Below, in pieces: positions 48,930-63,837 of a DNA stretch of 64,000 nt (the first letter of the stretch is position 1; each line of letters starts with the position of its first letter). The notes beneath the pieces were generated by a model. The model was not told where the DNA came from, made no database searches, and was given only the letters and a program-made list of their open reading frames with translations. Location: positions 4,277 through 68,276 of IMG/VR virus record IMGVR_UViG_2846458514_000001, one strand, 5' to 3'. The position numbers and the translations under genes are program-made. The DNA is from a virus. Its lineage: Duplodnaviria > Caudoviricetes.

Positions 48930-48947
48930 CGATAATTCATATTCCCG
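48930..48947 (-). repeat. Recombination-site-like element 1 (CGGGAA-TATGAA-TTATCG)
   Basis: + strand reads CGATAATTCATATTCCCG; intergenic. Confidence 0.75.
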
Positions 48948-48953
48948 AAGGTA

Positions 48954-49418
48954 ATGACCATGGCAAACGAAGTGAAGATGTATCTCGTGCCGGATCAAGC
49001 AACGCCCGAGCAGGAACATCGGGCGGAAACAGTCGTAATTGACAGGTATGGGCACCAAATTACGTGGCCCGAGTTCCATGCCTACATGACGGCCATCGCC
49101 ACCCCCATCCAGCCGTGCGCGGATGTGGAGACAATAACCCATGAAATGAAAACGTGTATTGAAGTCGATGAGATGACCGGAATGTCTTACCCGGTTGACT
49201 ATCCAATAAATGAATTAGTCCGCCGCACCGACATGGAGGCGCAGGTTGCCCGTGTGGCGGCTGAGAAGGATGCGGAGATTGCGCGGTTGCGAGACGGATT
49301 AACGCGGATCATGGCGGTCCCCGACGACGGCGGAATCAGCCCCGAAGACGGGTACGGGATTGGTGCTAAAATGACAGAGATCGCCCGCGCAACTCGCGAC
49401 GAAGGAGCAGCGGGATGA
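48954..49418 (+). CDS. Hypothetical phage protein
   Basis: ORF with a coiled-coil segment. Confidence 0.55.
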   Translation: MTMANEVKMYLVPDQATPEQEHRAETVVIDRYGHQITWPEFHAYMTAIATPIQPCADVETITHEMKTCIEVDEMTGMSYPVDYPINELVRRTDMEAQVARVAAEKDAEIARLRDGLTRIMAVPDDGGISPEDGYGIGAKMTEIARATRDEGAAG

Positions 49419-49819
49419 TCACTCTCATGGTCTGTTCTCGTTGTGGGGTTGCATCCACACTCACCAGTCAGTTTGTTTTTCGTGACAACAATCCGGAATG
49501 CCTCCCATGCTACCGGCGTCTATCCGGTAGTGGTGCAGGAGGCGCCATATGGAACGGCCCATCGGAAGTGCGGGAATATGCACGCAAGCAGGTAGACGAA
49601 GCCTTCCAGCGCGGGCGTGAACAGGAGCGCGCGGAGAGAAAAACGGATGATACCTGCCGGTTGGACTTCATGGAACATACGCAGATCGATGCCATGAAGG
49701 TAAATGGGCAATGGGAAATTCTATCTATGAGCGGCGACACGGCGGAAACGATAGGAACTGGCGACACCTTACGTGCCGCCATTGACGCCGCCATGAACGC
49801 GGAGAACGGGGATGTTTGA
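49415..49819 (+). CDS. Hypothetical phage protein
   Basis: CxxC pairs; D..RLDF and LRAAIDAAM phage motifs. Confidence 0.55.
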   Translation: MITLMVCSRCGVASTLTSQFVFRDNNPECLPCYRRLSGSGAGGAIWNGPSEVREYARKQVDEAFQRGREQERAERKTDDTCRLDFMEHTQIDAMKVNGQWEILSMSGDTAETIGTGDTLRAAIDAAMNAENGDV

Positions 49820-50012
49820 CAAAATATTCCTCTATTTGTGGCTTGTTTTAATTTCTGCATGGGTCGGAAGCTTTGATCTGTGTGCAGCCAATAGTATTTT
49901 GCTTTCGAGACCTTGGATTGCGATGTATTTCTACGTCAATACCGCAGCATGTTTTGCTGTCGCGCTATTTTCCTCAGAAAACGTCATGAAAATATGGCAG
50001 GAACGGAAATGA
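49812..50012 (+). CDS. Small membrane protein
   Basis: Two hydrophobic segments; coupled. Confidence 0.45.
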   Translation: MFDKIFLYLWLVLISAWVGSFDLCAANSILLSRPWIAMYFYVNTAACFAVALFSSENVMKIWQERK

Positions 50013-50242
50013 CCAGTCCTCCCTATGTCACCACCATATTTGCTCTGTATTGGGCGTTCGGCATGTATCTGGTTTCAAGAAAGAAATTCCAGATGGGCAT
50101 GCGTGAGAAAATGAACGAACTGGCCTGCCGGCCGGATTTCATAGGTCGGGAGTATATTGTGCAGGCGGCCGGTTGCCTCTGTATGCTTATCGCATCTCTC
50201 ACATATCCATGGTTTCTGATCATGAAGTCGAAGCGCGGCTGA
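50009..50242 (+). CDS. Small membrane protein
   Basis: Two hydrophobic segments; ATGA-coupled. Confidence 0.45.
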   Translation: MTSPPYVTTIFALYWAFGMYLVSRKKFQMGMREKMNELACRPDFIGREYIVQAAGCLCMLIASLTYPWFLIMKSKRG

Positions 50243-50257
50243 TCGAATGTCAGCCGA

Positions 50258-50275
50258 CGGGAAACTCTCTTATCG
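50258..50275 (+). repeat. Recombination-site-like element 2 (CGGGAA-ACTCTC-TTATCG)
   Basis: Between convergent genes. Confidence 0.75.
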
Positions 50276-50288
50276 CGGATAGAAGCCC

Positions 50289-51686
50289 CTATGCGGGGCT
50301 TGTCGGCTTATCCAGCACCACGATCCGGGTGCCGATCATCGTGCCCGCCGCCTTGAACACGCCTTCCGGGACATCCTCGATCAGCGCGGCGCTGCCGATC
50401 AGTGCTGCCGCGTCGGCTTTCAATACCGCAGGACCAGCGCCTGGGCCCTTGGGCACCAGCGCCACCAGTCGGCCGCCGGGTGCCAGCCGTTCCCATGCCA
50501 CCAGAAGGTTGCGGATCCACTGTCCGGAGGAATAGGGCGGGTTCATGACGATCCGGTCATAGCGGGCTGTGTCGGGGTCAAGCCAGTCCGCGCGCTGTGT
50601 GCTGACCCGCGGGTTCCCCGCATAGCGTTCTGTCAGGAAGTCCGCCCGGCCTGCATTCTTCTCCACCGCCACGATTGATGCTGCCGGCGTCTCCAGCAGG
50701 GCATCCACCAGCGCGCCTTTCCCCGCGCTGGGCTCACACACGGTCATGCCATCGTCTATATCAGCCAGATCGGCCATGCGTTCGGCCGTATCGACGGGGG
50801 TAGGATAGAAGTCCTCCGACCAGGTATCCTTGCGCCCGGCGGCCGGGTCTGCCTTCCGCCTGGCGCCCGCGGCATCCGGTCCGGCGCCCAGCGTCTCGCC
50901 GTAAAATTCGGCGATGATCCGGTTTGCCTTTTCCACCAGGTCGGGCCGGAGGAAATAGAACTGCGCATTGCCGTTCTTGAAGAACTTGACCCGGAAATAG
51001 TCGGTCTCGATGGTGCCGGCGCCCGGGCGGAAAGATGAGGCCGTGCGGATGGCCTCCGCCAGTGCGCCACGTAGGCCTTCATTGTAGCTAGTGGGCGGTT
51101 CCCGGCCGTCCAGGACATAGAAAATCCGGTCAAGATCACGAATTGAATCGTCCCGGTAGGAGTTGAGCGACCCGTAGGAGGTCTGGACGCCGGTCATGAC
51201 GATCCGCTTGGCCAGCCGGAACCCGTTGTTGGACCGGTATTCCCGGCAGAGCCCCCGGAATACCTCAACCAGACCACGCCGGAAGATCATGTCGGACTCT
51301 GCAAACAGCCCTTCCATCGTGACCCGCAGGTTGTCGGGGCTGGCCTCCGGCGGCACACCCGCCATGTCTTTTTCGAACTGGGCGCGTGCGGTCGCGTCCA
51401 TCATGCCCCACAGCGGGGTGCCGATCACGAATGACCGCCACATGGCCCGGTCCACCTCGATGCGGACCTGCTCTGGCAGGCCTTTCGTGTCTGACCAGCC
51501 TTTCAGGGATCGTTCGATTACCTGGTCGATCTTGCTGCCCACGCCATTCGTGCCCACGCAGGCGGCCTGCATGTCCGTACGCGCCTGCCGGATCTGTTCC
51601 ACGCCAGACAGGAAACCTTCGATCGCCTTCGCCCGGTTCGCGCACAGCTCATCGACAGACGCCTTGATGGCAATTTGCTGGGTCAT
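50289..51686 (-). CDS. DUF4942-like domain + amino-methyltransferase
   Basis: YFRVKFFKNGN; FYPTP, EPSAGKG, IVMNPPY. Confidence 0.8.
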   Translation of the reverse strand: MTQQIAIKASVDELCANRAKAIEGFLSGVEQIRQARTDMQAACVGTNGVGSKIDQVIERSLKGWSDTKGLPEQVRIEVDRAMWRSFVIGTPLWGMMDATARAQFEKDMAGVPPEASPDNLRVTMEGLFAESDMIFRRGLVEVFRGLCREYRSNNGFRLAKRIVMTGVQTSYGSLNSYRDDSIRDLDRIFYVLDGREPPTSYNEGLRGALAEAIRTASSFRPGAGTIETDYFRVKFFKNGNAQFYFLRPDLVEKANRIIAEFYGETLGAGPDAAGARRKADPAAGRKDTWSEDFYPTPVDTAERMADLADIDDGMTVCEPSAGKGALVDALLETPAASIVAVEKNAGRADFLTERYAGNPRVSTQRADWLDPDTARYDRIVMNPPYSSGQWIRNLLVAWERLAPGGRLVALVPKGPGAGPAVLKADAAALIGSAALIEDVPEGVFKAAGTMIGTRIVVLDKPTSPA

Positions 51687-51780
51687 TTTCTGTCCCTCTT
51701 CGATTGTCGGTAATGGGGTGCGGCGATGATTTCCGGAAGAACCGGGGATCAGGGAATTTCCTGTCCGCCGCATGCTTATT

Positions 51781-51797
51781 ATATACGCAGCGTATAT
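51781..51797. promoter_or_regulatory. Palindromic operator candidate ATATACGCAGCGTATAT
   Basis: Perfect 8-1-8 palindrome between divergent genes. Confidence 0.5.
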
Positions 51798-51858
51798 TAA
51801 AAAGGCAAGGGCAATAAAACACGTTGCGTTGATTATTTTTGGCCCATAGGGTTGAGGA

Positions 51859-52089
51859 ATGGGACGAGCACCGACATCACCGTGGGGGCTGCGCGCACGC
51901 GACGCAGGCCTTGACCAGAAGACGCTCGCTGCACTGACCGGCCTTGCGCCGAACTCGGTATCGCGCGGGTTGCGCGGGGAGTGGGAGAAAGGCATTCCGG
52001 CCTATCTGCCAACCATTATCCGGGCATGGGAAATGCTAAACGATGAACAGCGCACGACGCTGCTGGCCAAATCTAAGATGGATGAGTGA
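51859..52089 (+). CDS. Small HTH regulator
   Basis: AGLDQKTLAALTGLAPNSVSRGL. Confidence 0.7.
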   Translation: MGRAPTSPWGLRARDAGLDQKTLAALTGLAPNSVSRGLRGEWEKGIPAYLPTIIRAWEMLNDEQRTTLLAKSKMDE

Positions 52090-52295
52090 TGGGGAAGAAA
52101 TACGGCGACTGCGAGTACGATGTGAACCCAAACCTGCGACAAGGGTATAGTTGGATTGCGTATGCTCCTCGAGGAGCAAAAAAACCGATAATTGCCAGCG
52201 GGTTTAATTGCGACACAAAAGACCAGGCTGCACAGGAAGCAATGGCAGCGATTGACAAGTATGACAGGGAGAAAATCGCGAAGGGCCGCTGGTAG
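52086..52295 (+). CDS. Hypothetical protein
   Basis: Coupled small ORF. Confidence 0.45.
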   Translation: MMGKKYGDCEYDVNPNLRQGYSWIAYAPRGAKKPIIASGFNCDTKDQAAQEAMAAIDKYDREKIAKGRW

Positions 52296-52310
52296 GAACT
52301 GACACACCGG

Positions 52311-52328
52311 CGAGAATAACAGTTATCG
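52311..52328 (+). repeat. Recombination-site-like element 3 (CGAGAA-TAACAG-TTATCG)
   Basis: Intergenic; flanked by ACCGG/CCGGT outer symmetry. Confidence 0.75.
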
Positions 52329-52342
52329 CCGGTAAACGGCGG

Positions 52343-52358
52343 ATCGTGACGATAGGCT
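52343..52358 (+). promoter_or_regulatory. Late-promoter motif ATCGTGACGA-TAGGCT
   Basis: Repeated motif upstream of 52397. Confidence 0.6.
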
Positions 52359-52396
52359 GGGGCATCCCGTTCCCATCATCGTCATGAGGCCGCATC

Positions 52397-53029
52397 ATGC
52401 CCGATCTCGTCAAAATCGAAGCCGTGCGCGGCACACGCCGCAATTTTCTCGGCTTCGCGTTCCTGTCCGGCCTGGCCGTCGCCTCCCTTGCGGCGCTGCC
52501 CGGGTGCTCGTCCAGTAAGGATGGCAACGTCACCACCATCACCGTCAACGTGTCCGAGATCGATACCGACGGCACGGCCGCATTGAATATCCTCAAAACC
52601 GTTCTCGCGTTCACCGGTCTGCCGCTGGCCGTTGCTGATGTCGTGGATGATGCGATCGACGGTGTCGAGGCGGCATTGGCCACCTGGGACAAATATTGCA
52701 GCGGCAAGCAGACGGTCGTTTTTGACGCCACCAGCGTCCCGACGGAAGCGTCCAGCGTGATCGCAGCGCTGCAGAATGCCGCCACGACCATCGGAAACGT
52801 CGCGACGTCGGAGGCGGCCACCCTCGGCACCACCCTGACGTCCAAAATCACCTCCGTATCGTCGGACATCGCGTCGCTTGCGGCGATCGTCTCCAGCATC
52901 GTCCGGACAACGGCGGGACTGTCGCTGGGCGCGCAGGCGAGCACGCTGACCCCGACGCAGGCCCGCATGCTGCAGGTCAACGGCATCCTTGCGCGGCATG
53001 GCCTGCCGCCGGTCGCCGTCAAGGGCTGA
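52397..53029 (+). CDS. Putative Tat-exported lipoprotein
   Basis: TRRNFLG twin-arginine signal and LPGC lipobox; Ala/Thr-rich helices. Confidence 0.7.
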   Translation: MPDLVKIEAVRGTRRNFLGFAFLSGLAVASLAALPGCSSSKDGNVTTITVNVSEIDTDGTAALNILKTVLAFTGLPLAVADVVDDAIDGVEAALATWDKYCSGKQTVVFDATSVPTEASSVIAALQNAATTIGNVATSEAATLGTTLTSKITSVSSDIASLAAIVSSIVRTTAGLSLGAQASTLTPTQARMLQVNGILARHGLPPVAVKG

Positions 53030-53031
53030 CG

Positions 53032-53124
53032 TTGCTGATCGCCTGCGTCGCGCTGGCGGCGTTCGTCGGGGGTGCCGTATTCGGTGCCGCCGCTTTCATG
53101 GTCCTCTCTTCCTGGTATCTCTGA
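53032..53124 (+). CDS. 30-aa hydrophobic peptide
   Basis: TTG start; LIACVALAAFVGGAVFGAAAFMVLSSWYL exactly fills the gap. Confidence 0.4.
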   Translation: MLIACVALAAFVGGAVFGAAAFMVLSSWYL

Positions 53125-53125
53125 C

Positions 53126-54130
53126 ATGCTCAAGCCTTCCGACCTGCACGTTGTCTCCGTTTTCTCCAACAACCGGCGCTGGCGCTCGCGTGAGCGTCTG
53201 CTGCGCAGGTTCATTCCCCATATGCAGGCGTCGGGCGTGACCCTGACGATGGTCGAGCATGTGATGGGCGAGCGCGATTTCGTGCTGGATCCTGATGACC
53301 CGGCCTTGGCCGGGGTGCGCCTGTTCCAGGTCCGCGGCGACAGCCGGCAGGAGAACTGGCTGAAGGAAGGGCTGATCCGCTATGGCGTCAGCCGCCTGCC
53401 GGCCGACGCGAAGTATCTGGCCGTGATCGACGCCGACGTGTTTTTCCAGCGACAGGACTGGGCACTGGCCACGCTCGACATGCTTCAGGTGCATCGCGTG
53501 GGGCAGCCCTGGTCCTATTCCGTTGACCTCGGCCCCGATGAAAACCCGGTCTGCGACGAGCATGGGCGGCAGATGGACCGCTCGTTCTGCGCCGCGTGGG
53601 CGGCGGGCGACATCATCGTCACCGACGAGGATTACGGCATCGGGCAGTCCAGCGCCCAGTGGCTGCTGGACCCGGAGCGTAAGCGCGACTGGCGGCAGCA
53701 TTACGGATACGCCTGGGCGTTCCGTCTGGATGTCTGGAACGATTTCGGCGGCCTGCCCGACTGGCTGGTGACGGGTGCTGCCGATTATATCGCCGCCATG
53801 GCGTTCGCGGGGAAGCTGGATACCTCGGACGCCTACACGTCACCCGCCTGCGCGCGGCGTCTGCGCCATTTTGCCGCGGCCTGCGACCGGGCCGTGCGTC
53901 AGGATATCGGCGTCGTGCCCGGGTTGCTGTCGCATGGATTCCACGGATCGAAGAAAAAGCGGTTTTACCTCGACCGCAAGGACATCCTGCGGGAGGCCAA
54001 TTTCGATCCGGACGTGGATATCGGATATGACCGCCACGGGCTGCCATTCCTCGCCAGCGACAATCGCATCCTGCGCGACGGCCTGCGGCGCCTGTCGGTC
54101 GCCCGGGATGAAGACAGCAACGCGCTGTAG
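53126..54130 (+). CDS. Glycosyltransferase-like (GT-A) protein
   Basis: WLKE.LI..G, YLAVIDADV DxD motif, GYAWAFR...FGGL, HG.HGS. Confidence 0.65.
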   Translation: MLKPSDLHVVSVFSNNRRWRSRERLLRRFIPHMQASGVTLTMVEHVMGERDFVLDPDDPALAGVRLFQVRGDSRQENWLKEGLIRYGVSRLPADAKYLAVIDADVFFQRQDWALATLDMLQVHRVGQPWSYSVDLGPDENPVCDEHGRQMDRSFCAAWAAGDIIVTDEDYGIGQSSAQWLLDPERKRDWRQHYGYAWAFRLDVWNDFGGLPDWLVTGAADYIAAMAFAGKLDTSDAYTSPACARRLRHFAAACDRAVRQDIGVVPGLLSHGFHGSKKKRFYLDRKDILREANFDPDVDIGYDRHGLPFLASDNRILRDGLRRLSVARDEDSNAL

Positions 54131-54140
54131 GAGGCCGGCC

Positions 54141-54242
54141 ATGAACCCGACGGTCGCCGTCCTTCTCTGGCTCAGTGGCGTCGTGAGCGGCGTTGCTGGC
54201 GCGTTCTTCCTTTACGCATATCTGGCGAGCAATTCACGATGA
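54141..54242 (+). CDS. 33-aa membrane peptide
   Basis: AGGAGG SD; single TM segment. Confidence 0.55.
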   Translation: MNPTVAVLLWLSGVVSGVAGAFFLYAYLASNSR

Positions 54243-54294
54243 GCAGTTCTGAAGATCCGGGGGGCTATCTGCTTCGGCAGCGGCTTCGTGACGC

Positions 54295-54459
54295 ATGACG
54301 GTGCAATTTCTGGCAGCGGTCGGTCTTTTCCTGACCGGCTGCGCATTCTCGCAGGTCGTCGCGTTCGCTCTGGCCGCGTGGCGGGAGCGCGCCCGTGAGC
54401 GAAAAATCGACGCCACACTGGGTCCTCCTCCGCCTGATCCATCGGATGCCCCACGATGA
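54295..54459 (+). CDS. 54-aa membrane/lipoprotein peptide
   Basis: LTGC and a Pro-rich tail; ATGA-coupled at both ends. Confidence 0.5.
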   Translation: MTVQFLAAVGLFLTGCAFSQVVAFALAAWRERARERKIDATLGPPPPDPSDAPR

Positions 54460-55259
54460 TGCTCCGCAAATTTGGCTGCAAGCCGCCAGAGACCCGTGCT
54501 GGCCAGCCGACCATGGCGGTCATGCGCAGCTTCATGGCCCGCAGGGCGCCAAGCAGTCTGATCCGGTCCCATATTGACCCCGGCGTTCTCATGCTGGGGA
54601 ACGACACGACGAATGACTGTACCAGCGCGGGTATCGGGAATCATATCCGCGCCACGGCGGCGCTCAACCGGTTCCAGGTGGACGTGACCACGGCGCAGGC
54701 GCTGACGTTCTACGGCCGCCACACGGGGTTCGTGCCGGGCAATCCTGCCACGGACACCGGCGCAGTAGAGGTGGACATGCTCACCGCGGCGGCCCGGGAC
54801 GGATACGACGTGACCAACCAGACGCTGTTCCCGATCTGGGGCAGCACGGACCCGCATGACCGCAACGGGCTGTGCAACATCATGGCGGACCTGACGGCTC
54901 CATATTTCGGGGTGCAGTTCGCCGATGCGGATCTGTACGAGGATGAGGCTGGCCAGCTGCCGCCCGTCTGGGACACGCGCACACCGGCCAGATATGGCGA
55001 TCCCACTCCCAATCCCCGCAAGGGGCATTGCCTGCTGGGCTGGTCCTATACCGGGATGGCCGACGATGATCTGGTCGAACTGCTGACGTGGGGCGGCCAG
55101 CAGCGTGCGACGTGGCGCTGGTTGCGCAGCCGCGCAGTAGAGGCGCATGCCCTGGCATGGCGTCAACTGCTGGCCGCCGACAGTCCGCTCCCGCTGTGGG
55201 AGGAGTGGCAGAACCTGGTAGCGGCCAACGACAACTATCTGCGCGCGGCGGCGGCCTGA
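54456..55259 (+). CDS. Papain-fold cysteine peptidase-like protein
   Basis: MLGND..NDCTSAG (Cys), GHCLL (His), LTWG. Confidence 0.65.
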   Translation: MMLRKFGCKPPETRAGQPTMAVMRSFMARRAPSSLIRSHIDPGVLMLGNDTTNDCTSAGIGNHIRATAALNRFQVDVTTAQALTFYGRHTGFVPGNPATDTGAVEVDMLTAAARDGYDVTNQTLFPIWGSTDPHDRNGLCNIMADLTAPYFGVQFADADLYEDEAGQLPPVWDTRTPARYGDPTPNPRKGHCLLGWSYTGMADDDLVELLTWGGQQRATWRWLRSRAVEAHALAWRQLLAADSPLPLWEEWQNLVAANDNYLRAAAA

Positions 55260-55337
55260 TGCCGAGGCTTGTACCGGCCCGAGCCTTCCGGTAAGATTCT
55301 GCAAGTTCATCCTCTGGTTCCGTCAGTGGTTGAATCA

Positions 55338-55372
55338 GAAGGCCGCCAGCGCTGCACTCGCTGGCGGCCTTC
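55338..55372. terminator. Hairpin terminator between convergent modules
   Basis: 14-bp stem GAAGGCCGCCAGCG/CGCTGGCGGCCTTC. Confidence 0.65.
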
Positions 55373-55402
55373 GTTTAGGCTGTCGTCACGGTATTAAGGG
55401 CG

Positions 55403-55420
55403 CGGGAATGTGCGTTATCG
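55403..55420 (+). repeat. Recombination-site-like element 4 (CGGGAA-TGTGCG-TTATCG)
   Basis: Just downstream of umuC; shares the CCGGTAAAC flank with element 3. Confidence 0.75.
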
Positions 55421-55434
55421 CCGGTAAACCGGCA

Positions 55435-56700
55435 TCACCACGCATGGACCTGCATGATGTCCTCAAACCGCGTGGTATAGGCAGGTGACAGGAAGGCCTG
55501 CCGCGGGCGCCAGTCCTGCCGCGTGCCGGTCGCCAGCGGGCGCACGGTCCCGCGGCCAAACCGGGCATTGAGGGCGTCCATCGTTGCCATCACGCTTTCG
55601 GCGCGTTGTGGATCGCGGGTTGAGAACAGCGCGCCCTGCCGCGCGGCCGGTGCCAGAGCGTCAAGAATGACGCCAGCCTTGAAATACCGATATCCCGGTT
55701 TCCAGATTTTTCGCAGCAGCCGCAGTGATGCCGCGATCAGCGCCATCGTATCATTGGTCGGCTCGATGCTGATCGATTGCTGGTTGGCATACCATCCCGC
55801 CTCGGTCGATGTGCGGGGGTTAGTCCGTATGAAAACACTGATGCTGCCGGCATGCAGCCGATCGCGTCGGAGTTTGGCTGCGGCCGTCGTCGCATATGAA
55901 GCGACGGCCTCGCGCAGATCCGACCAGTTGTCGATCGGCCTGCCGAATGTGCGCGTACAGGCGAGTCCCTGTCGTGGAGCTGCCAGATCCGCCAGGGGGA
56001 GGCACGATTGCCCCTGCAGTTCCGCCTGCACCCGCGCACCCACGACCGTAAGCAGGTTGCGGACGGCGCGTGTATCCATCTCGACAAAATCCGCGATCGT
56101 GTGAATGCCTGCCCGCCGGAGGCGTTCGGCCCCCTTGCGGCCTATGCCCCACACATCCTCGATGTCAGTCCGGCGGTACCAGTCATGCCGGAGGGCCGTA
56201 TCATTGAGATCGCACAGCCCCTGTAGCGCGGGATCCGCTTTTGCGATGCGGTTGGCCACCTTGGCTATGGTCTTCGTTGGCCCCCAGCCAATGCAGGTCG
56301 GAATCTTGGAGATTTCCAGAACGTCACGCCGCAGGTCCGCGCAGAAGGTGGCCAGATCATATGGGAGCGCCGTGAGGTCGAGGAACATTTCATCGATCGA
56401 GTAGGGTTCGACGCGGGGAACCCGATATTCCAGCACCTGGAACATGCGTCGGCTCATGTCAGCATACAGCGGATAATTGCTCGAGTACCACCGCACGCCC
56501 TGGAGTGCTGGGCGCCTGCGTGCCAGATGCCATGGCTCGCCCATCTTGATGCCCAGCTGCTTGGCCTCGGCCGTCCGGGCGATCGCGCACCCGTCGTTGT
56601 TGCTCAGAACCACGACGGGCGAGTTCCTGATGCTGGCGTCAAAGGCCCGCTGGCAGGAACAGTAAAACGAGTTCCCATCGATGAGGCCAAAGACCGGCAT
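55435..56700 (-). CDS. umuC: Y-family DNA polymerase V catalytic subunit
   Basis: IDGNSFYCSC, VVLSNNDGC, SSNY.LY.DMS.R, YSIDE, TKT.AK.AN, VWGIG, LSPAYTT. Confidence 0.95.
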   Translation of the reverse strand: MPVFGLIDGNSFYCSCQRAFDASIRNSPVVVLSNNDGCAIARTAEAKQLGIKMGEPWHLARRRPALQGVRWYSSNYPLYADMSRRMFQVLEYRVPRVEPYSIDEMFLDLTALPYDLATFCADLRRDVLEISKIPTCIGWGPTKTIAKVANRIAKADPALQGLCDLNDTALRHDWYRRTDIEDVWGIGRKGAERLRRAGIHTIADFVEMDTRAVRNLLTVVGARVQAELQGQSCLPLADLAAPRQGLACTRTFGRPIDNWSDLREAVASYATTAAAKLRRDRLHAGSISVFIRTNPRTSTEAGWYANQQSISIEPTNDTMALIAASLRLLRKIWKPGYRYFKAGVILDALAPAARQGALFSTRDPQRAESVMATMDALNARFGRGTVRPLATGTRQDWRPRQAFLSPAYTTRFEDIMQVHAW

Positions 56701-56702
56701 AT

Positions 56703-57117: not shown

Positions 57118-57132
57118 GAACGTAACATGAAC
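57118..57132 (-). promoter_or_regulatory. Alphaproteobacterial LexA (SOS) box
   Basis: GAAC-GTAACAT-GAAC (GTTC-N7-GTTC on the minus strand), 29 bp upstream of umuD. Confidence 0.85.
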
Positions 57133-57180
57133 ATCATGTAAGAAGTCAAGGGGCAAGCGGGTGACGCGCGGGGTAGCCGG

Positions 57181-57196
57181 GTCGTGACGATAGGAT
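57181..57196 (+). promoter_or_regulatory. Late-promoter motif GTCGTGACGA-TAGGAT
   Basis: Repeated motif. Confidence 0.6.
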
Positions 57197-57203
57197 GAAC
57201 GGG

Positions 57204-57221
57204 CGAGAATACCATTTATCG
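57204..57221 (+). repeat. Recombination-site-like element 5 (CGAGAA-TACCAT-TTATCG)
   Basis: Between umuD and the lipoprotein gene. Confidence 0.75.
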
Positions 57222-57263
57222 CGCGTAAAGCGCGACCTGCTGCATGCGGCCGAAGGAGATATC

Positions 57264-57950
57264 ATGAGCGTCGAACGGAAATCGCTTTTCAGGCAGTTCG
57301 CGATTCCAAAAGGGGGTGCCGCCAATTTTATGCCCTGTATGATAGCAGGCGCCATTCTCATCATGGCGGTGGCGTTTCTGACTGGATGCAGCGACCGGCC
57401 GCAGGTTGCCACCACGATCCCCCAGGCAATGGCGTCCATACAGGACAGCCTGGCGCGTTCGGGGGCGGTGTCTGTCTCCCATGCAGCATCCTGGACGCCC
57501 GAGCAGGCAACCAGGTTTGAGCAGGATGTGCAGGCCGTCCAGTGCTCGCAACAGCGGTCTGATCCTGTGGTGGGGGTTTTAGCCGGCACCGTGACGGGCA
57601 CCCTGTCTGTGCAGTTCACACAGGGCGCACAGGCAACGGTCGGCGCGCTGACAACGGCACCGACCATCGGAGCAGAACTGAGCGGGAGCCGGACCCATGG
57701 GCAATCCCTGACAGTTCCTCTGTCGTACGCACCGCTGTCCTCCCTGCCTGACGTCGAGATGTCGCGGCAAATTGGCTACGAGACGGAGCTGCTCGCCCAA
57801 AATGATGACACGCGGCACCAAGAAGCGGCGCGGCTGATTCAGGACCGGGAAGAGCTGCGGGCGCATGTCGCGGAACTGATTGCAAACTGGGATATGGCTC
57901 AGTGCGCTCCGCACGCGCCAGTCGCACCACTTGTCGGCGTAAGGAGATAA
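57264..57950 (+). CDS. Putative lipoprotein
   Basis: AAGGAG SD; hydrophobic stretch with FLTGC lipobox. Confidence 0.6.
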   Translation: MSVERKSLFRQFAIPKGGAANFMPCMIAGAILIMAVAFLTGCSDRPQVATTIPQAMASIQDSLARSGAVSVSHAASWTPEQATRFEQDVQAVQCSQQRSDPVVGVLAGTVTGTLSVQFTQGAQATVGALTTAPTIGAELSGSRTHGQSLTVPLSYAPLSSLPDVEMSRQIGYETELLAQNDDTRHQEAARLIQDREELRAHVAELIANWDMAQCAPHAPVAPLVGVRR

Positions 57951-58099
57951 GCACTCTAAAAAGATGAAGTCACAATATACAACAAATAACAAAAAACAGG
58001 ACTATTGTATAAAAGTCTTGACGACGTTTGGGGGAAGTATTCTAGGATGAGGGATGTCACGAGTTCGTGGCATAACATCCAGCCTGAAAGGAAAGGAGA

Positions 58100-58417
58100 A
58101 TGAAACTCTCCGATCAAATGCAACGCTTTGTAAAAGCCTCTGATATGACGCAAGTCATTGCCCTTCTTGATGCCCTTTTGGCGGCTCCTGGCCACATGCT
58201 ATCTGCCACAGATCTACCCCGGGCCTTCCTTCGTGGGCGGTTTCGGGGAAAGGTCGGATATACCTCGCTCCGGAAAGCAGTTATTACTGCCATCAAAGAG
58301 AACCTTATCCATCAGGATAATTCGTTCTTTAAATTGAATTCATTCACTCCAGAACAAATCGAACGGCTGCGGTTGTTTATTAACGCCGCGCACCGTAGAG
58401 TCACATACGGAACATAA
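58100..58417 (+). CDS. Hypothetical (winged-helix-like) protein
   Basis: AAGGAG SD; lower GC. Confidence 0.55.
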   Translation: MKLSDQMQRFVKASDMTQVIALLDALLAAPGHMLSATDLPRAFLRGRFRGKVGYTSLRKAVITAIKENLIHQDNSFFKLNSFTPEQIERLRLFINAAHRRVTYGT

Positions 58418-58471
58418 TCCGTATAAGTTATGGATAAGACCCCGCCCCTTATTGAGGGGCGGGGTTGTGCG

Positions 58472-58852
58472 TTACGATGAAGACGTCGTCGTTTTCTTCT
58501 CAATCACCTGTTTTAACTTCGTCGGCAGGTGAAGCCGCGTCGGCGTGACAGGAATACCGCTCTTATCGAGGATCGTGGTTGCAGTCGGCTTCTGCACCCG
58601 ATCCACCATGACGGCAGTTTTCCCGCGGCGCACCGCGTTGACGGCCCATCCGACGTTGGCCGCAATGCCATTGATCAGGACGTAGATGATGCCCTCGATC
58701 CGCGCGCCAGGCGGTGGCGGCTGGATGATGGCGGCCGCAATGGCGCACGCCGCGATCACGGTGCATACGGGGGCCACGTACTGCTGCGGCACCTCGTAGA
58801 GCAGGATGGAAAATGCGGCGGTAATGGATGCCAGTGACGACGACGGTTTCAT
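58472..58852 (-). CDS. Holin-like membrane protein
   Basis: TM segments; IAANVGWA.NA; coupled to the endolysin. Confidence 0.6.
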   Translation of the reverse strand: MKPSSSLASITAAFSILLYEVPQQYVAPVCTVIAACAIAAAIIQPPPPGARIEGIIYVLINGIAANVGWAVNAVRRGKTAVMVDRVQKPTATTILDKSGIPVTPTRLHLPTKLKQVIEKKTTTSSS

Positions 58853-59490
58853 GATGCAGCCTTTCGCGCGGCATTGGATAATTGGAATGCACTGGTGACA
58901 CGACGCGCGGTGCGGCCAAGCCAGTCAGTACCGAATTCAGTGAACCCGGCATCGCGCCGGTAGACATTGTCCTGTAACGATCCGAGCGCGCAGATTTGCA
59001 CCAGATCCAGCGCATCCGCTGTGGCGATCGCGTCAAGGGTCACGGGGCCAATAATCCCGTCGGCCGGCACCCCGAGGCTGCCCTGCAGTCGCATCGCAAA
59101 AAGCGGTGCAATCAATCTTGTCGGTGTCAGGGATGACCTGACTTCATCCAGCAGACGCAGGCTCGTTTCCTCGCCCGTGTTGAATGCCTCGTCCACCACC
59201 ATCAGGTTGATCCCGGATGGCAGTTCCGCGCCGCCGCACGGGGTCCAGAACAGATCAGCATATATCTGGGAAAATGTAACTTCAGTTAGGCCGCGCATAT
59301 CGGCCTCGGTCGGTACGCGGTTCAGCCAGCCACGAAGGCATGGCGCGGAGATTCCCATATTGGTACCGATCAGGATCCCGTGCCCAATTTCTCCCCCTGT
59401 CCAGTTGCCTGGGTCAGAAGAGCATTTCTGATAACCGCCCTCCTCGTTCAGCGTGAAGTCGGCGCAGAAATCAAGGTCGGTTTTTGGCAT
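58849..59490 (-). CDS. GH108 endolysin
   Basis: EEGGY...DPG, GTNMGIS, D.AFN.G, ADGIIGP.T peptidoglycan-binding motif, FG..W..R. Confidence 0.88.
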   Translation of the reverse strand: MPKTDLDFCADFTLNEEGGYQKCSSDPGNWTGGEIGHGILIGTNMGISAPCLRGWLNRVPTEADMRGLTEVTFSQIYADLFWTPCGGAELPSGINLMVVDEAFNTGEETSLRLLDEVRSSLTPTRLIAPLFAMRLQGSLGVPADGIIGPVTLDAIATADALDLVQICALGSLQDNVYRRDAGFTEFGTDWLGRTARRVTSAFQLSNAARKAAS

Positions 59491-59538
59491 CGTTATTCCT
59501 AGATATATATGGTTTCCGAAACCATATTTAATCCGGAT

Positions 59539-59554
59539 ATCATGCCGTCACGAC
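59539..59554 (-). promoter_or_regulatory. Late-promoter motif GTCGTGACGG-CATGAT driving the lysis genes
   Basis: Reverse-complement copy identical to 7859-7874. Confidence 0.65.
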
Positions 59555-59663
59555 CTCACGAATAACATATATTACCACGAGTAACGCTAATTTTCTGCCA
59601 AACTTAGGATAATCCGCTTGACGGGATAAACGTTTTCCGCTCTGGTTATTAAACCATGGACAT

Positions 59664-59882
59664 ATGGAGATAACCATGCAGTTTGAACGATCCGCTGTCG
59701 CCCCCTCTCCGACGCAGACACCTGTGGAGGTTTTGGAAACATTCTGGCGTCGTAAGAAAATGGAAGCTGAAAATTCAGCGTTCCGGACGGGCGTCATCTC
59801 GGGCGCGGCCGTATGTGCGGCGCTTGCATGCGGCGTGTGGGCAATCAATATCGCGCTGCACTACCTGATCGGGACAATCTGA
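59664..59882 (+). CDS. Small membrane protein
   Basis: C-terminal TM segment. Confidence 0.5.
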   Translation: MEITMQFERSAVAPSPTQTPVEVLETFWRRKKMEAENSAFRTGVISGAAVCAALACGVWAINIALHYLIGTI

Positions 59883-59883
59883 C

Positions 59884-60240
59884 GTGGAGAACATGGCCCG
59901 TGGTGCAGACACACACTGCGCTCTGTTTGAAATTCTCCACCATGGTTATCTGGGTGGCGACGCTTCTGGAATCGCTACCGTTCGACAGTGGTGCGTATTC
60001 CTTTGCGCCGATCGCGAGGAGTTTGTGCGCAATATCGCAAAGGTGGTCGGGATTAGCAAAGGAGCAGCCGTTCGCGCGATTGATGCGCTGGCGGCGGAGG
60101 GGCTTGTCGAACGTGTGACAAACGCGGCTGACCGACGCTCCCCATACATCCGTGTCACTCCCAAGGGGTCGCGTCTCATCGCATCCGCGCGTAAGCGTCT
60201 GGACGCCGTTTTCCGGCGCCAGATGGATAACCGTCGATAA
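59884..60240 (+). CDS. MarR-like winged-helix protein
   Basis: IA..VGISKGAAVRAIDAL...GLVER.....DRR...IRVT.KG. Confidence 0.8.
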   Translation: MENMARGADTHCALFEILHHGYLGGDASGIATVRQWCVFLCADREEFVRNIAKVVGISKGAAVRAIDALAAEGLVERVTNAADRRSPYIRVTPKGSRLIASARKRLDAVFRRQMDNRR

Positions 60241-60252
60241 TCGTTATTCTCG
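60235..60252 (-). repeat. Recombination-site-like element 6 (CGAGAA-TAACGA-TTATCG)
   Basis: + strand reads CGATAATCGTTATTCTCG and supplies the MarR stop codon. Confidence 0.75.
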
Positions 60253-60266
60253 CGGGTAAACCGAAA

Positions 60267-61007
60267 ATGGAATTTTCCAGCACCAGATTGCGGGGCGATG
60301 CGACAGGGTCGCATGCGACCCAGCCATGGAAACAGACCTATACGGGCATGAAGTTCGATCTGCTCGATCCTCGGCCCGAGCAGGTGCGTCTGATGGATAT
60401 CGGCGTGCATCTTTCTCGCACACCGCGTTTCAATGGCGCGACGACGGTTGAAAGCTGGAACGTCGCGCAGCATTCGCTGCTTGTGCGCGACATCCTCCTG
60501 CAACTTTATCCTGATGCGGGGCCGATAGTTCAGATCTATGCCCTGCTGCACGATGCGCATGAGGCCTACACGGGCGACATCACCACCCCGATGAAAATGG
60601 CTATCCGCGCAGTCCTGCGCTCGGCCGGCCGGTCCGACGATCCCGTCGAGATCCTCCAACACCGGATACAGAAGGCGGTCCACAGGCATTTCCGCCTGCC
60701 GGAAATGGCCAGCGTTTCCATTATGGAACGTGTGCACCGGGCCGACATGCATGCCCTGTCGTGCGAAAAAGAGGCGTTCATGGGGCCGTCACCGGACAGT
60801 TGGGGCAATCTGGCCCCGGTCATCAGGGGCACCGCGCCGGAGCCTCTGGGTGCGGAGGACAGCGCCATCCTGTTCATCGGGGCTGTGCGCGAATGCCTGG
60901 AGGCTCTGGGACTGCTCATTTTCTGTGAGGTTGATGATCAGTGTTCCGTCCTGGTGGCGGAAATGGAGGGTGCAAAGTGCGAAAGGGGCAATCGTGAACT
61001 GGCCTGA
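60267..61007 (+). CDS. HD-domain deoxynucleotide hydrolase (YfbR-like)
   Basis: LS..PRFNG, VAQHS, ALLHDAHEAY.GDI.TP.K. Confidence 0.85.
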   Translation: MEFSSTRLRGDATGSHATQPWKQTYTGMKFDLLDPRPEQVRLMDIGVHLSRTPRFNGATTVESWNVAQHSLLVRDILLQLYPDAGPIVQIYALLHDAHEAYTGDITTPMKMAIRAVLRSAGRSDDPVEILQHRIQKAVHRHFRLPEMASVSIMERVHRADMHALSCEKEAFMGPSPDSWGNLAPVIRGTAPEPLGAEDSAILFIGAVRECLEALGLLIFCEVDDQCSVLVAEMEGAKCERGNRELA

Positions 61008-61563
61008 TCGCATTGACAATTATTGCGCCGTCACCGGGTTTCCGCGCTCGCTGTTCGTGGATGGGACCGGTCGCGTGGTCGGCACATGGATCATGGGGGC
61101 CGATTATCGTGTCTCAAGCGGGTATTATGGGGGCTATCCGGCGGGATACCTGAAACGGGTCCGCGCGCTGTTTCCCGAAAAACGCAGCACTCTGCACCTG
61201 TTTAGCGGATGCGTGGATCTGGCTGCGTTTCCCGGCGACACCGTGGATATCAATCCGGACCGATCCCCGACATATGTCGATTGCGCGCAAACCCTGACCA
61301 ATGTCCCGCTGGACAAATATGACCTCGTGCTGGCGGACCCGCCGTATTCGGTCGAGGACTGCGAGCATTACGGCACCACCATGGTCAAGCGGAACCTCGT
61401 CATGCGCGCGCTGCAGCGCCTGCCGGCAGGGGCGCATATCGTATGGCTGGACCAGGTGCTGCCGATGTTTCGAAAGGACCATTTCATGGTCGAGGCCACC
61501 ATTGGGATGTGGAAAAGCACCAACCACCGCTTTCGCGGGGTAACAGTATTCCGCCGTCTCTGA
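60994..61563 (+). CDS. Small amino-methyltransferase-like protein
   Basis: YYGGYP, LHLFSG, VDI, LADPPY. Confidence 0.7.
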   Translation: MNWPDRIDNYCAVTGFPRSLFVDGTGRVVGTWIMGADYRVSSGYYGGYPAGYLKRVRALFPEKRSTLHLFSGCVDLAAFPGDTVDINPDRSPTYVDCAQTLTNVPLDKYDLVLADPPYSVEDCEHYGTTMVKRNLVMRALQRLPAGAHIVWLDQVLPMFRKDHFMVEATIGMWKSTNHRFRGVTVFRRL

Positions 61564-61674
61564 ACAAGTATCCATGGATATGACGGAAATAATCGAACGT
61601 ATTCGAACGCCATGGCGGATTGACCGTGTGACGGATGCCCGCGCGCATGCGCCGCATGGCCAATCAGGGCCAGC

Positions 61675-62049
61675 ATGACGGAGAATTTCATGAGTGCAGA
61701 AAGGGGAGCCGCCACGTCGTTTTCCCAGCTGGTCGCCCAGGTTGAGGACGGTCAGTTCAATCACGACGCCGGGGATGCCATCCAGGACCTCGTCGCCGCG
61801 ATGAGTGATGCGGCCATGTCCAAAAATGGCCGCAGCAAGGGAAAAATTGCGATCACGATCGGCTTCGAACTGGAAGGCGGCGTCATCACGACGACGACCG
61901 ATTTCAAGGTGACGAAGCCGCGCATGGCGCGTGCGAAATCCGTGTTCTGGGCCACGCCCGAGAACCACCTGACCAGGCGCAACCCGCGCCAGCAGGAAAT
62001 GGAACTGCGTGAGGTTCCGACGTCATCGTCACCCATCAGGAACGTATAA
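61675..62049 (+). CDS. Conserved phage hypothetical protein
   Basis: FWATPEN.L.R.NPRQ motif; typical upstream partner of DUF2303. Confidence 0.7.
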   Translation: MTENFMSAERGAATSFSQLVAQVEDGQFNHDAGDAIQDLVAAMSDAAMSKNGRSKGKIAITIGFELEGGVITTTTDFKVTKPRMARAKSVFWATPENHLTRRNPRQQEMELREVPTSSSPIRNV

Positions 62050-63017
62050 TGTCTGAAAAAACTCCCGAAAAAATCGCCGCCGTCGATAATTCCGGCGCCG
62101 CCGTCGTGCGCGATATCATGCCGGCCGCCATTGGCCCCAAGGGTATGATGGTGGATCGTGGTACTGATGCGAGCGCGGTGGTCCTCTCGGTTCCGGACGG
62201 CGTGAAGCTGCATTCGGTCAAGGCGTTTCTGGACGAAAACCGGATTGTGCCCGAACGGCGCAAGGGCACTGCGGTGTTCACCGACGTTCCGTCGTTCTGT
62301 GCCCATGCATTACGTTTCCAGGCGGTAAACAGCGTCATTTTCGCGAATGATGACCGCGAAAACCCGTCCATGATGTCCGTCCTCGATTATCATGAGGCCG
62401 GCCCTGACGAGCGCACCGGCACGCATAACTGCGAACATCGTGGCCTGTACCGATTCCCCCTGTCTGATGAATGGAAGGCATGGCAGGCGTTTGAAAAGCG
62501 CGGTTATGTCAGCATCACCGATTTTGCCGAATTCATCGAAAACCGGCTTCTGGACGTGATGGAGCCGATTTCCTCCACGCCGGTGGATGGCGAAAGCCCG
62601 CTGGACGCCGCAATGCGCGAGACCGTGGCCAAGCTGGGCGGAAACCTCGCTGATTCACACAGGCTCCTGGAACTGTCCCGCGGGCTGAAGGTGCACGAGA
62701 ACAGCAGGGTGGCGCAGGCGGTCAATCTGTCCAGCGGCGAGGGGCAGATGGTTTTCCAGACCGAGCATGCGGATGAGAAGGGCGAGCCGCTCAAGGTGCC
62801 GAACCTGTTCCTGATCGCGATCCCGGTATTCGCCAACGACGCGGCGTATCGACTGCTGGTGCGCCTGCGGTACCGCCTGCGCGGAGGTTCGGTGACCTGG
62901 GCTGTGGAGCGCTATCGCGCGGATGTCGCGTTTGACGATGCGTTCGCGGGTGTCCTGTTGCAGGCCAGTGGAACGACACAGATGCCCGTGATGCGGGGCA
63001 AGCCCGAAATTTCCTGA
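62049..63017 (+). CDS. DUF2303-family phage protein
   Basis: P.RRKGT...SF, LDYH, S.EW.AW, FAEFIE, IPVF...RLRYR. Confidence 0.8.
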   Translation: MSEKTPEKIAAVDNSGAAVVRDIMPAAIGPKGMMVDRGTDASAVVLSVPDGVKLHSVKAFLDENRIVPERRKGTAVFTDVPSFCAHALRFQAVNSVIFANDDRENPSMMSVLDYHEAGPDERTGTHNCEHRGLYRFPLSDEWKAWQAFEKRGYVSITDFAEFIENRLLDVMEPISSTPVDGESPLDAAMRETVAKLGGNLADSHRLLELSRGLKVHENSRVAQAVNLSSGEGQMVFQTEHADEKGEPLKVPNLFLIAIPVFANDAAYRLLVRLRYRLRGGSVTWAVERYRADVAFDDAFAGVLLQASGTTQMPVMRGKPEIS

Positions 63018-63073
63018 CCTTCCCGCCACCATGCTTCCCCGGGTGACCGGGGAAGCAGCACCGGAATGATGCC

Positions 63074-63253
63074 ATGACGTTTGATTCCTTTCTGATTTTC
63101 GTCAAAGAACTGGTTTTCATACGCTCCGCCACGGACATGTCGGCCCGTGCCGATATGGAGGATGCCTGCCGGACCTGCTTTACCCAGCGGATGTCCATCT
63201 CCGATACCGCGAACCATCTCATCGAGATGGACCAGGTGGAGGAAGCGGCATGA
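63074..63253 (+). CDS. Small hypothetical protein
   Basis: 59-aa ORF, ATGA-coupled to the next gene. Confidence 0.45.
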   Translation: MTFDSFLIFVKELVFIRSATDMSARADMEDACRTCFTQRMSISDTANHLIEMDQVEEAA

Positions 63254-63837
63254 AAACCGCAAACCTGACGCACGAACGCCTGGATGCCGCCGATAAGGGT
63301 AATTCCCGCCGGTTACCGGATGTGCCCGAAAACAACGGCTGGCCCGGGGAGTTGGGAAAGCCGGAAAAGTCCCACGTTGACGGGCGGCATTGGGTCGCAG
63401 CCATACGCGGCGACCGCGTGGGTGCCCCCTTCCCGATCGCCTGGTCGGCACAGGCGGGCTGGGGCGGATTTGATTACACGCCAGCCGAGTTTGGCGCACG
63501 CTACATCTACCACGGTGCGGTGCTGACTCCGTCGCAGGTGCGCGCCCTGGTGTACGAGGTCCGGCATGCGGCCTACGCTGCAGGCAGGGCATCACTGGCC
63601 CAGACGTCAAAGGGTGACGTCGCAGATGCGATGCAATGGAGACGTGTATCCGTCCTGATGCCAGCAGAGGATTGGTTTGAGGACGAGGGCGACGTGCTTT
63701 GGCATCGCCCTGACGAACATGGAAAGCTATGCGAGGCACCTATCGTTGGACACCCATTATCCAGCGATTGGGATGATGATGACATGGCCCCTTACACACT
63801 GTGGTCGCGTATCCCCAACATCGTGCAGAAGCCGTAA
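63250..63837 (+). CDS. Hypothetical phage protein
   Basis: W.EDEGDVLW...P.VG.PL.SDW motif. Confidence 0.6.
   Translation: MKTANLTHERLDAADKGNSRRLPDVPENNGWPGELGKPEKSHVDGRHWVAAIRGDRVGAPFPIAWSAQAGWGGFDYTPAEFGARYIYHGAVLTPSQVRALVYEVRHAAYAAGRASLAQTSKGDVADAMQWRRVSVLMPAEDWFEDEGDVLWHRPDEHGKLCEAPIVGHPLSSDWDDDDMAPYTLWSRIPNIVQKP
63291..63308 (-). repeat. Recombination-site-like element 7 (CGGGAA-TTACCC-TTATCG)
   Basis: + strand reads CGATAAGGGTAATTCCCG; in the 5' end of ORF 63250. Confidence 0.7.

Follow-up and report, generated by a model that had tools for sequence, protein, structure and literature searches.

The 64,000-nt stretch of DNA analysed here (the window; viral record IMGVR_UViG_2846458514_000001, Caudoviricetes) contains seven copies of the motif CG(A/G)GAA-N6-TTATCG between 48930 and 63308, most of them at gene boundaries, which raises the question of which protein recognizes them and what they are used for. 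An earlier note, made from the letters of the window, had read them as a candidate recombinase cassette system. The comparisons reported below indicate that the copies probably serve as lox-like core sites for the Cre-type tyrosine recombinase which the element itself encodes at 15157-16113. The window corresponds to G000:C1:4277-68276 of a record of 68,276 bp, the ends of which overlap by 68 bp, so that the molecule is circular; positions refer to the window unless G000 is given. The bacterial host of the element is Novacetimonas, a cellulose-making vinegar bacterium. A sister element, the 75,702-bp circular contig G001:C372 of Novacetimonas hansenii JCM 7643, was available for comparison and is 90-99.8% identical in colinear blocks.

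Occurrence and arrangement of the sites

All seven exact matches were recovered at the positions, on the strands and with the spacers given in the earlier note. In 100 dinucleotide-preserving shuffles of the window, 0.01 matches were found on average and seven were never reached; the earlier note had given ~0.015 expected hits at equal base frequencies. The full circular element of 68 kb holds nine exact copies, two of which lie outside the window at G000 1467 (+) and G000 4124 (-), and the control pattern (the motif reversed but not complemented) had no match in it. A position-weight scan identified an additional copy with 17 of 18 positions at 45144-45161 (-), in which the ACCGG flank is kept; its score is 21.2 bits, and the maximum in 20 shuffled genomes was 18.8. 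Thus, the statement that the first 48 kb are free of the motif holds for exact matches only. The scan of the whole replicon and its relatives, suggested in the note, gave nine exact copies plus one 17/18 copy for the element and ten exact copies for the sister element. The sites are listed below, with change-points referring to the comparison of the two elements.

G000 1467, plus strand: site A, outside the window, exact copy.
G000 4124-4141, minus strand: site B, outside the window, 132 nt upstream of repA.
45144..45161, minus strand: near-exact site, TTATCA replacing TTATCG; within a 219-aa open reading frame (ORF); a 5.2-kb identical block has its left edge 7 bp away.
48930..48947, minus strand: site C, spacer TATGAA; takes up a 44-bp gap separating a PAPS-reductase-like gene from the following ORF; unchanged in the sister element.
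50258..50275, plus strand: site D, spacer ACTCTC; in a 46-bp gap between convergent genes, beside a hairpin; change-point 22 bp to the right.
52311..52328, plus strand: site E, spacer TAACAG; top match to the full 30-bp consensus; homology to the sister element begins 5 bp to the left.
55403..55420, plus strand: site F, spacer TGTGCG; flanked by convergent genes, with the umuC end 14 nt away; no change-point.
57204..57221, plus strand: site G, spacer TACCAT; in the gap from which umuD and a 228-aa ORF diverge; small-indel edges 36-49 bp to the left.
60235..60252, minus strand: site H, spacer TAACGA; overlaps the final 6 nt of a MarR-like gene, 14 nt before an HD-hydrolase gene; change-point 20 bp to the left.
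63291..63308, minus strand: site I, spacer TTACCC; 41 nt inside a 195-aa ORF starting at 63250; change-point 28 bp to the right.
Sister element only: site J, the tenth exact site there, 3 nt after the stop codon of the portal gene.

Together with the near-exact copy, the sites span an arc of ~28 kb which comprises early and accessory genes. Intergenic DNA accounts for 14% of the genome according to our own gene calls; seven of the nine exact sites were located in gaps of 26-175 bp, and four of them in gaps of 26-46 bp which are nearly filled by the site. The other two overlap the last 25 nt of a doubtful ORF and lie 41 nt inside an ORF, respectively. Within the window, six of the seven sites are in or at the edge of such gaps, which bears out the gene-boundary position claimed for six sites; the one at 63291 is inside an ORF. 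Round the circle, the orientations form the series -,-,+,+,+,+,-,-,+,-, in which 4/9 neighbouring pairs are inverted and 5/9 are direct. Orientation with respect to the flanking genes is mixed, and two sites are placed between convergent gene ends.

Anatomy of the sites

An alignment of ten sites revealed an imperfect inverted repeat of 30 bp with the layout 12-6-12, wACC-NN-CGRGAA-N6-TTATCG-NN-GGTA, the wACC and GGTA flanks of which substantiate the weak outer symmetry seen before. The 12 core positions are invariant in 10/10 sites. Conservation of the left flank is A 7/10, C 9/10 and C 8/10, and that of the right flank G 8/10, G 6/10, T 8/10 and A 9/10. The two half-sites differ at one fixed position, i.e., G (position 4) versus T (position 15), in all ten sites. 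The spacer is unique to every copy; its positions 7 and 8 lean to T and A/T, and none of the ten spacers is its own reverse complement as judged by eye. The sites consequently display the target layout of two inverted arms around a short asymmetric spacer. The NN positions are complementary in a minority of sites only (by eye), so the site is regarded as a duplex protein site and not as a hairpin; the conserved feature appears to be the sequence and not the pairing of a stem.

The recombinase and the sites of its relatives

The proposed enzyme of the sites is encoded as follows.

15157..16113, plus strand: Cre-type tyrosine recombinase, 318 aa, with the Pfam domains Phage_integrase and SAM_1.

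Its closest solved homologue in the PDB is Cre of P1 (E = 6.5e-20, residues 35-307), compared to 8e-9 for XerD. The residues R, H-x-x-R and Y align with R173, H289, R292 and Y324 of Cre, and a histidine is found at the position of Cre W315. The protein is 99% identical between the element and its sister.

Relatives of the recombinase with 35-53% identity were examined in 13 viral loci from IMG/VR. An exact CGRKAA-N6-TTATCG was found at most 1.2 kb from the gene in 6 of the 13 loci, whereas 0.014 were expected (Poisson p = 1.2e-14); the background was one place in 2.66 Mb of 217 unrelated loci. The remaining 164 kb of the 13 loci contain one place as well. Copies with one or two mismatches were present 130-883 bp from the gene in five further loci, and the two loci without any copy have almost no upstream flank. 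When ten whole viral records were searched, the exact site occurred once in seven and was absent from three. In locus L228, a 14-6-14 repeat with the same single G/T asymmetry is located between a ParA homologue and the recombinase gene and represents the sole lox-like site. The IMG/VR provirus L229 has two sites (7303 and 9620) with unlike spacers, one located 883 bp before and one 529 bp after the Cre-type gene; such a layout could be an intermediate between a single site and an array.

A homologue of the recombinase (E 1e-30 or better) was detected in 132 of 401 Acetobacteraceae genomes. For 29 Acetobacteraceae loci (gene ± 1.5 kb), an exact copy was found in five and a copy within one mismatch in 16; the exact copies lie 78-154 bp upstream of the gene and their arms are extended to 14-15 bp. 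Additionally, 11 scattered motif hits were located 45-154 bp from recombinase genes (G139 twice, G038, G223, G145 twice, G385, G293, G111, G163 and G033). The core with its 6-bp gap would accordingly be the target type of this Cre-like clade, for which one copy beside the gene appears to be the norm. Since the relatives carry the same core beside the gene, the sites of the element are interpreted as lox-like targets of this enzyme family which have been multiplied. Both the anatomy and the position beside recombinase genes in relatives support the view of the earlier note that the sites resemble tyrosine-recombinase core sites, and they make the Cre-like gene, which the note had proposed as a possible server, the best candidate.

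Two repeats near the gene of the element were considered as a gene-side lox site and dismissed. The 13-7-13 repeat at 13873-13905 is a perfect leader hairpin, the place of which is taken by another hairpin in the sister element, and the AT-rich 11-6-11 repeat at 16519 belongs to a stretch unrelated between the two elements. A promoter-like pair TTGACA-N17-TAGCTA, followed by this hairpin (13840-13905 for the two together), is found in the leader of an operon comprising an antirepressor gene, a 125-aa ORF and the recombinase gene, and homology of the two elements starts exactly at this leader hairpin. The ~700 bp following the recombinase gene (16114-16827) are AT-rich and unrelated in the two elements; they probably represent a swapped small gene.

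Comparison with the sister element

In the genome of strain JCM 7643 (3.7 Mb), ten exact matches were found, all of them on the 75.7-kb contig and none elsewhere. All nine shared sites (9/9) are identical in the two elements including the spacers, and their order and orientation are kept, although the identity of the flanks falls to 77-90%.

Changes in identity along the pair were determined by segmentation with a hidden Markov model (HMM) using four states (identical, ~4%, ~15% and unaligned), which replaced a first change-point scan swamped by indels. Of 50 change-points genome-wide, five are at most 30 bp from one of ten sites (0.57 expected, p = 2.7e-4) and seven at most 50 bp (p = 2.4e-5). 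With the nine exact sites only, the numbers are four (p = 1.8e-3) and six (p = 1.3e-4), respectively. A change-point within 30 bp was thus observed for 5/10 sites versus 5/65 other gene junctions (Fisher p = 0.0027), and the density of change-points per kb was 6.4 at sites, 0.69 at other junctions and 0.73 genome-wide. One block of 5,160 bp with a single mismatch has its ends 7 bp away from the near-exact site and 22 bp away from site D; sites E and I each mark one end of a further near-identical block. To the left of site E, a 68-aa gene (52089-52295) is replaced in the sister element by a homologue of 29% identity, which reads as an allelic swap with site E as its right edge. The alignment proposed as a check in the earlier note thus gave an enrichment of change-points at the sites; site-to-site deletions or inversions were absent.

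A second array and the distribution of the motif

Among 400 other Acetobacteraceae genomes, 128 contain at least one match and none contains ten; G269 (6.4 Mb) is the only one with nine, which are distributed over seven contigs. Eight of these nine exact matches share longer arms, CAACACG-core-CGTGTTG, with all spacers different. Searching G269 for the 26-bp pattern with up to three mismatches yielded 25 distinct places, compared to one for the control pattern. One site is located 131 bp upstream of the genome's own Cre-type gene, and its arms are common to ~24 dispersed copies. Several sites cluster 2-7 kb apart on single contigs; examples with the arms CACG-CGRGAA / TTATCG-CGTG are C30:4445, 8628, 14206 and 21419 as well as C73:236339. 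On C30, the four sites are situated between ORFs and separate accessory modules, namely NmrA with carbonic anhydrase, a PHB-depolymerase-type esterase, AsmA with ferritin, and an ABC sugar-uptake operon with a ROK regulator. Judged from its sequence, G269 thus contains a second array, of ~25 lox-like sites.

A search of 142 fetched loci for analogous bipartite repeats returned no second array of this motif; operator-type palindromes were observed in other phages (L009, L008 and L114). In the 72-kb viral contig L009, five co-oriented palindromes TTGTAACC-N5-GGTTAC are found at 6044-13621, each 4 nt before a TAAGTT -10-like hexamer. These are a textbook dispersed operator-promoter set on an unrelated contig. 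No other close relatives of the element were found in phage, plasmid, IMG/VR and JGI metagenome collections, nor in the other four genomes of the genus, and one match to the extended pattern in IMG/VR was judged to be due to chance.

Proposed mechanism and its meaning

Each site consists of two inverted arms of ~12 bp, wACC-NN-CGRGAA and TTATCG-NN-GGTw; one recombinase monomer would bind per arm, and strand exchange would take place in the 6-bp spacer. A single site of the ancestral type beside the gene would have been multiplied to 10-11 copies in this Novacetimonas phage-plasmid of 68-76 kb. Exchange would be completed only between matching spacers, hence the only partner open to a copy would be its own counterpart on another DNA molecule. 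This counterpart might be (i) the sister copy in a plasmid dimer, leading to resolution, (ii) possibly the repeated end of packaged DNA, leading to closure of the circle, or (iii) the same-numbered site on a related co-resident element, which would permit in-register exchange of the segment enclosed by two sites. Their unlike spacers would keep the element from losing or inverting modules of its own, and this spacer-based protection fits the perfect synteny of the two elements. Circle closure is a weak idea, as the usual packaging direction would put only site J in the repeat of the first headful. The comparisons themselves establish the sites, their anatomy and conservation, their restriction to the element, the tie to the enzyme family and the excess of breakpoints, whereas binding, cleavage, the need for matching spacers and the choice among the three uses are inferred, the mode of binding and exchange from what is established for Cre and lox (sections of PMC10250229 and PMC11260471). 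For Cre/lox, spacers are assumed to need matching, and matching pairs of non-loxP spacers mostly recombine according to a section of PMC11260471.

A wider interpretation is put forward tentatively and may well fail. The system could be a natural form of recombinase-mediated cassette exchange, in which a Cre-type enzyme acts on 'numbered' sites with the same arms and different spacers, so that related phage-plasmids and plasmids would swap modules in a fixed order and without deleting themselves; the same layout is seen again in accessory replicons of Acetobacteraceae, with the ~25 sites of G269 as the example. Cre/lox is familiar as the pairing of an enzyme with a single site, and collections of lox sites whose spacers are incompatible have been regarded as a laboratory invention; a natural element appears to have built one. 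If the enzyme behaves as proposed, a mechanism would be at hand by which mosaic phages and plasmids exchange modules at fixed junctions with the order kept. Furthermore, an orthogonal recombinase with a 6-bp spacer and at least ten naturally tested, mutually incompatible target sites would be available. In the literature that was searched, neither a natural multi-lox array nor this element is described; the supplement of PMC10250229, with ~500 predicted recombinase-site pairs, could hold members.

Weighing of the proposed function

Several observations weigh against the assignment of the sites to the recombinase at 15157-16113 and against their use in exchange. Cre-type targets normally lie within ~1 kb of the recombinase gene, as a section of PMC10250229 states, and no site copy is found within 1 kb of the element's own gene. 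The same source gives arms of 13-15 bp and a spacer of 8 bp for the Cre family, compared to ~12-bp arms with two free positions and a 6-bp spacer here. The outer arm bases are ACC/GGT in the element and mostly GTC/GAC in the relatives; because of this difference, recognition of the sites by this particular enzyme is a presumption.

Concerning the breakpoints, 45 of the 50 change-points lie away from sites and only 5/10 sites carry one: sites B, C and F show none, and at site G merely an indel is nearby. Neither at the other ends of the blocks adjoining sites E and I nor at either end of a fourth block was a site or half-site detected within 80 bp. A coarse test comparing 300-bp windows to the left and right was not significant (4/10 sites versus 14/71 junctions, p = 0.22); this test called a 'shift' at 20% of random positions, too. 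When blocks were defined by perfect runs with thresholds ≥ 1000 bp, the p-value for the exact sites only was ~0.06. The excess of breakpoints is that of a single genome pair, and ordinary homologous recombination with a preference for conserved islands could account for it. A fact that speaks against such a passive origin is that the DNA next to two of the five change-point sites is 90-95% identical and contains many other conserved islands. Between the two elements, no gain, loss or inversion of a module is bounded by two sites, and no larger insertion or replacement has a site on both sides.

Parts of the window were present in 20 of the 23 listed sequencing runs (nine studies). Joints were examined in three contig runs (X2, X5 and X19; short contigs) and in one raw-read run, X23. 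One of six joints abuts a site: in X19, where other DNA takes the place of the PAPS-reductase-like gene, 47909 is joined to 48922, and the replacement ends on the right 8 bp before site C. Further points against the proposed use are that site-to-site joints were absent from the three contig runs and the one raw-read run, the strain of which is without the element, and that none of the 18 loose ends among those listed (75 more exist) was found within 30 bp of a site. The raw reads of X23 cover only 49092-49129, 55268-55408 and 57735-57769; therefore, this strain lacks the element and its reads cannot reveal circles or inversions.

The earlier note had inferred a cassette exchange or inversion array. 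Inversion or excision was not borne out: neither the order nor the orientation nor the spacers of the nine shared sites differ between the two elements, and the reads examined contained no joint of one site to another. An alternation of orientation around modules is likewise absent, with four of nine pairs inverted.

Alternative explanations

An unlikely alternative is that the sites are fossil junctions, i.e., scars of recombinase-mediated capture of circles at a resident site, which have no function any more and whose spacers have drifted. The location of most sites at gene junctions would agree with this, as would the varying G+C of the segments between sites (0.526 to 0.648) and the single-site state of the relatives, which is presumably ancestral. 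However, drifting scars would hardly retain 12 invariant core positions in 10/10 sites, and the identity of the nine shared sites within flanks of 77-90% identity points to present selection. Moreover, no neighbouring sites have a common spacer, as a fresh capture would leave, and breakpoints of recent exchange are found at sites.

An improbable reading, despite having been regarded as the main alternative in the earlier note, is a dispersed operator or roadblock at which a protein of the element insulates or represses modules. This protein could be the MarR-like one (59884-60240) or a small protein encoded at 51859-52089 or G000 1235-1456; the latter two are similar to helix-turn-helix (HTH) proteins by eye only and have no family hit. 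Sites A, E and H directly follow the genes of these small putative regulators, sites E, F and G lie 11-17 nt from the late-promoter-like tcGTGACGAYA, and dispersed palindromic operators do exist in other phage loci such as L009. An operator is nevertheless difficult to reconcile with the presence of the same core beside Cre-type genes in dozens of unrelated replicons. The palindromes of L009 overlap a clear -35/-10 pair, whereas none of four σ70-like promoter matches in 47500-64000 coincides with a site. Likewise, the control region of the CI-like repressor (41344-42024) has other repeats and no copy of the motif. The sites have no common orientation with respect to transcription; two of them are located between convergent gene ends and two within ORFs. 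Hits resembling terminators numbered 16 in 47500-64000, with 13.4 expected.

Very improbable are substrates of the host enzymes XerC and XerD, i.e., true pdif-type sites whose modules would be moved by the dimer-resolution enzymes of the host. The geometry of 11/12-6-11/12 and the inner bases GAA / TTAT, resembling ATAA / TTAT of dif, are in favour. A candidate host dif, however, shares only ATAA/TTAT with the sites and differs in the outer arms and the register; the motif is absent from the host chromosome, the association is with Cre-type genes, and orientation does not alternate around modules. The pdif/Xer mechanism suggested in the earlier note consequently found no support. The candidate chromosomal dif of Novacetimonas hansenii (G001:C64:4930-4965, 11-6-11, AT-rich) is provisional, as it was found with a short degenerate pattern.

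A hairpin element in RNA or DNA (terminator or processing site) is scarcely credible: the arms are partly complementary and site E could form a stem of 7 bp, but the stem would contain a conserved G-A mismatch, the NN flanks pair in a minority of sites (by eye), orientation is mixed versus the flanking genes, and sequence rather than pairing is conserved. Fork-trap (Ter-like), iteron and centromere readings were dropped by reasoning on position and orientation, and none of the motifs for sigma-54, ECF, FliA, CtrA, DnaA, IHF or LexA appears to fit.

The replicon and its other genes

The element has a G+C content of 60%, and its classification as a phage-plasmid, already proposed in the earlier note, is supported by RepA, the domains of a ParA-type ATPase and an intact portal gene in the sister element.

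1..828, plus strand: RepA (PF10134), plasmid replication initiator, assigned with Pfam.
40096..40767, minus strand: ParA-type partition ATPase with MipZ, CbiA and AAA_31 domains, indicative of a plasmid lifestyle.

Further genes encode a CI-like repressor with a divergent early operon, an O/DnaD-like loader, a beta clamp, UmuDC, a GH108 endolysin and a Rha/KilAC antirepressor; three methyltransferase genes are intact and one is a fragment. Hits to Pfam and PHROGs families were obtained for umuC/umuD, the GH108 endolysin, the MarR-like protein, the HD hydrolase, the methyltransferases and DUF2303, which agrees with the module labels assigned before. The label 'lipoprotein/GT/peptidase' did not stand, as the proteins encoded at 52397-53029, 53126-54130 and 54456-55259 have no family hit in Pfam or PHROGs; 57264-57950 gave a sub-threshold match only.

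A deletion of 1.6 kb at 5572 (G000 9848) removes most of the portal gene together with site J; the corresponding region of the sister element is intact (rotated C372 11642-13342) and contains a portal ORF of 559 aa. Due to this deletion, the element of the window is probably unable to make heads on its own. A segment of ~200 bp at 49097-49296 is 98% identical to the Komagataeibacter phages phiKX1 and phiKX2, and 38 bp of this phiKX-like stretch (49092-49129) are present at depth in the raw reads of the strain without the element.

Some other repeats were noticed. The intergenic repeat tcGTGACGAYA occurs at 16809, 23976, 33142, 52346, 55381 (-) and 57184, the last three copies being next to sites E, F and G at a distance of 11-17 nt; near site F, the repeat points into the end of the upstream gene. 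Four exact palindromes TTGCATGCATGCATGCAA at 7830, 23907, 33093 and 40810 constitute another dispersed repeat, which shows no sequence relationship to the recombinase sites. A direct repeat GAAC-N7-GAAC, spotted by eye at 57117-57131 (G000 61393-61407), lies ~40 nt upstream of umuD and has a form which we take to be that of the alphaproteobacterial LexA box.

Comparison with known systems

Dispersed repressor operators (phiC31 CIR, mycobacteriophage stoperators and KorB) are located at promoters or are co-oriented, and they are present in the control region of the repressor. The sites studied here do not overlap promoters, are of mixed orientation, and are absent from the intergenic control region of the CI-like repressor.

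The pdif sites of Acinetobacter plasmids mimic the host dif and use the host XerC/XerD. The likeness is that many core sites with a 6-bp spacer are placed between accessory modules of a plasmid, and contig C30 of G269 is similar in this respect. In contrast to pdif, the present sites have an element-borne Cre-type partner, no likeness to dif and no alternating orientation.

The PeSLs of T4-type phages are conserved elements between non-essential genes, at which relatives differ by insertion, deletion or replacement, as described in a section of PMC2839356. The likeness concerns the evolutionary role and not the nature of the elements: PeSLs are promoter-plus-terminator cassettes which recombine by homology and form mini-circles, whereas the sites of this element are without a σ70 promoter, are not stem-loops, differ from each other in their centres and are linked with a site-specific recombinase.

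Engineered sets of heterospecific lox or FRT sites likewise combine common arms with different spacers, and the 5.2-kb block bounded by two sites resembles the outcome of a cassette exchange. Those sets are man-made, whereas the set of the element is natural; that spacers would have to match here is carried over from Cre as treated in a section of PMC11260471.

The nearest parallel in enzyme and target is Cre/loxP of P1 with its relatives (Dre/rox, VCre/VloxP, Vika/vox, Nigri/nox, Panto/pox and the YR series), in which a simple tyrosine recombinase is likewise borne by a plasmid-like prophage and inverted arms enclose a short asymmetric spacer. The single site beside the gene in the relatives of the present recombinase, once next to parA, matches the rule for finding targets given in a section of PMC10250229. 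Differences are the length of the spacer, which is 8 (4 in rox) compared to 6 here, and the fixed one-base asymmetry of the arms in the element. Above all, this element carries 10-11 copies with different spacers, which are spread over 28 kb and none of which lies beside the gene.

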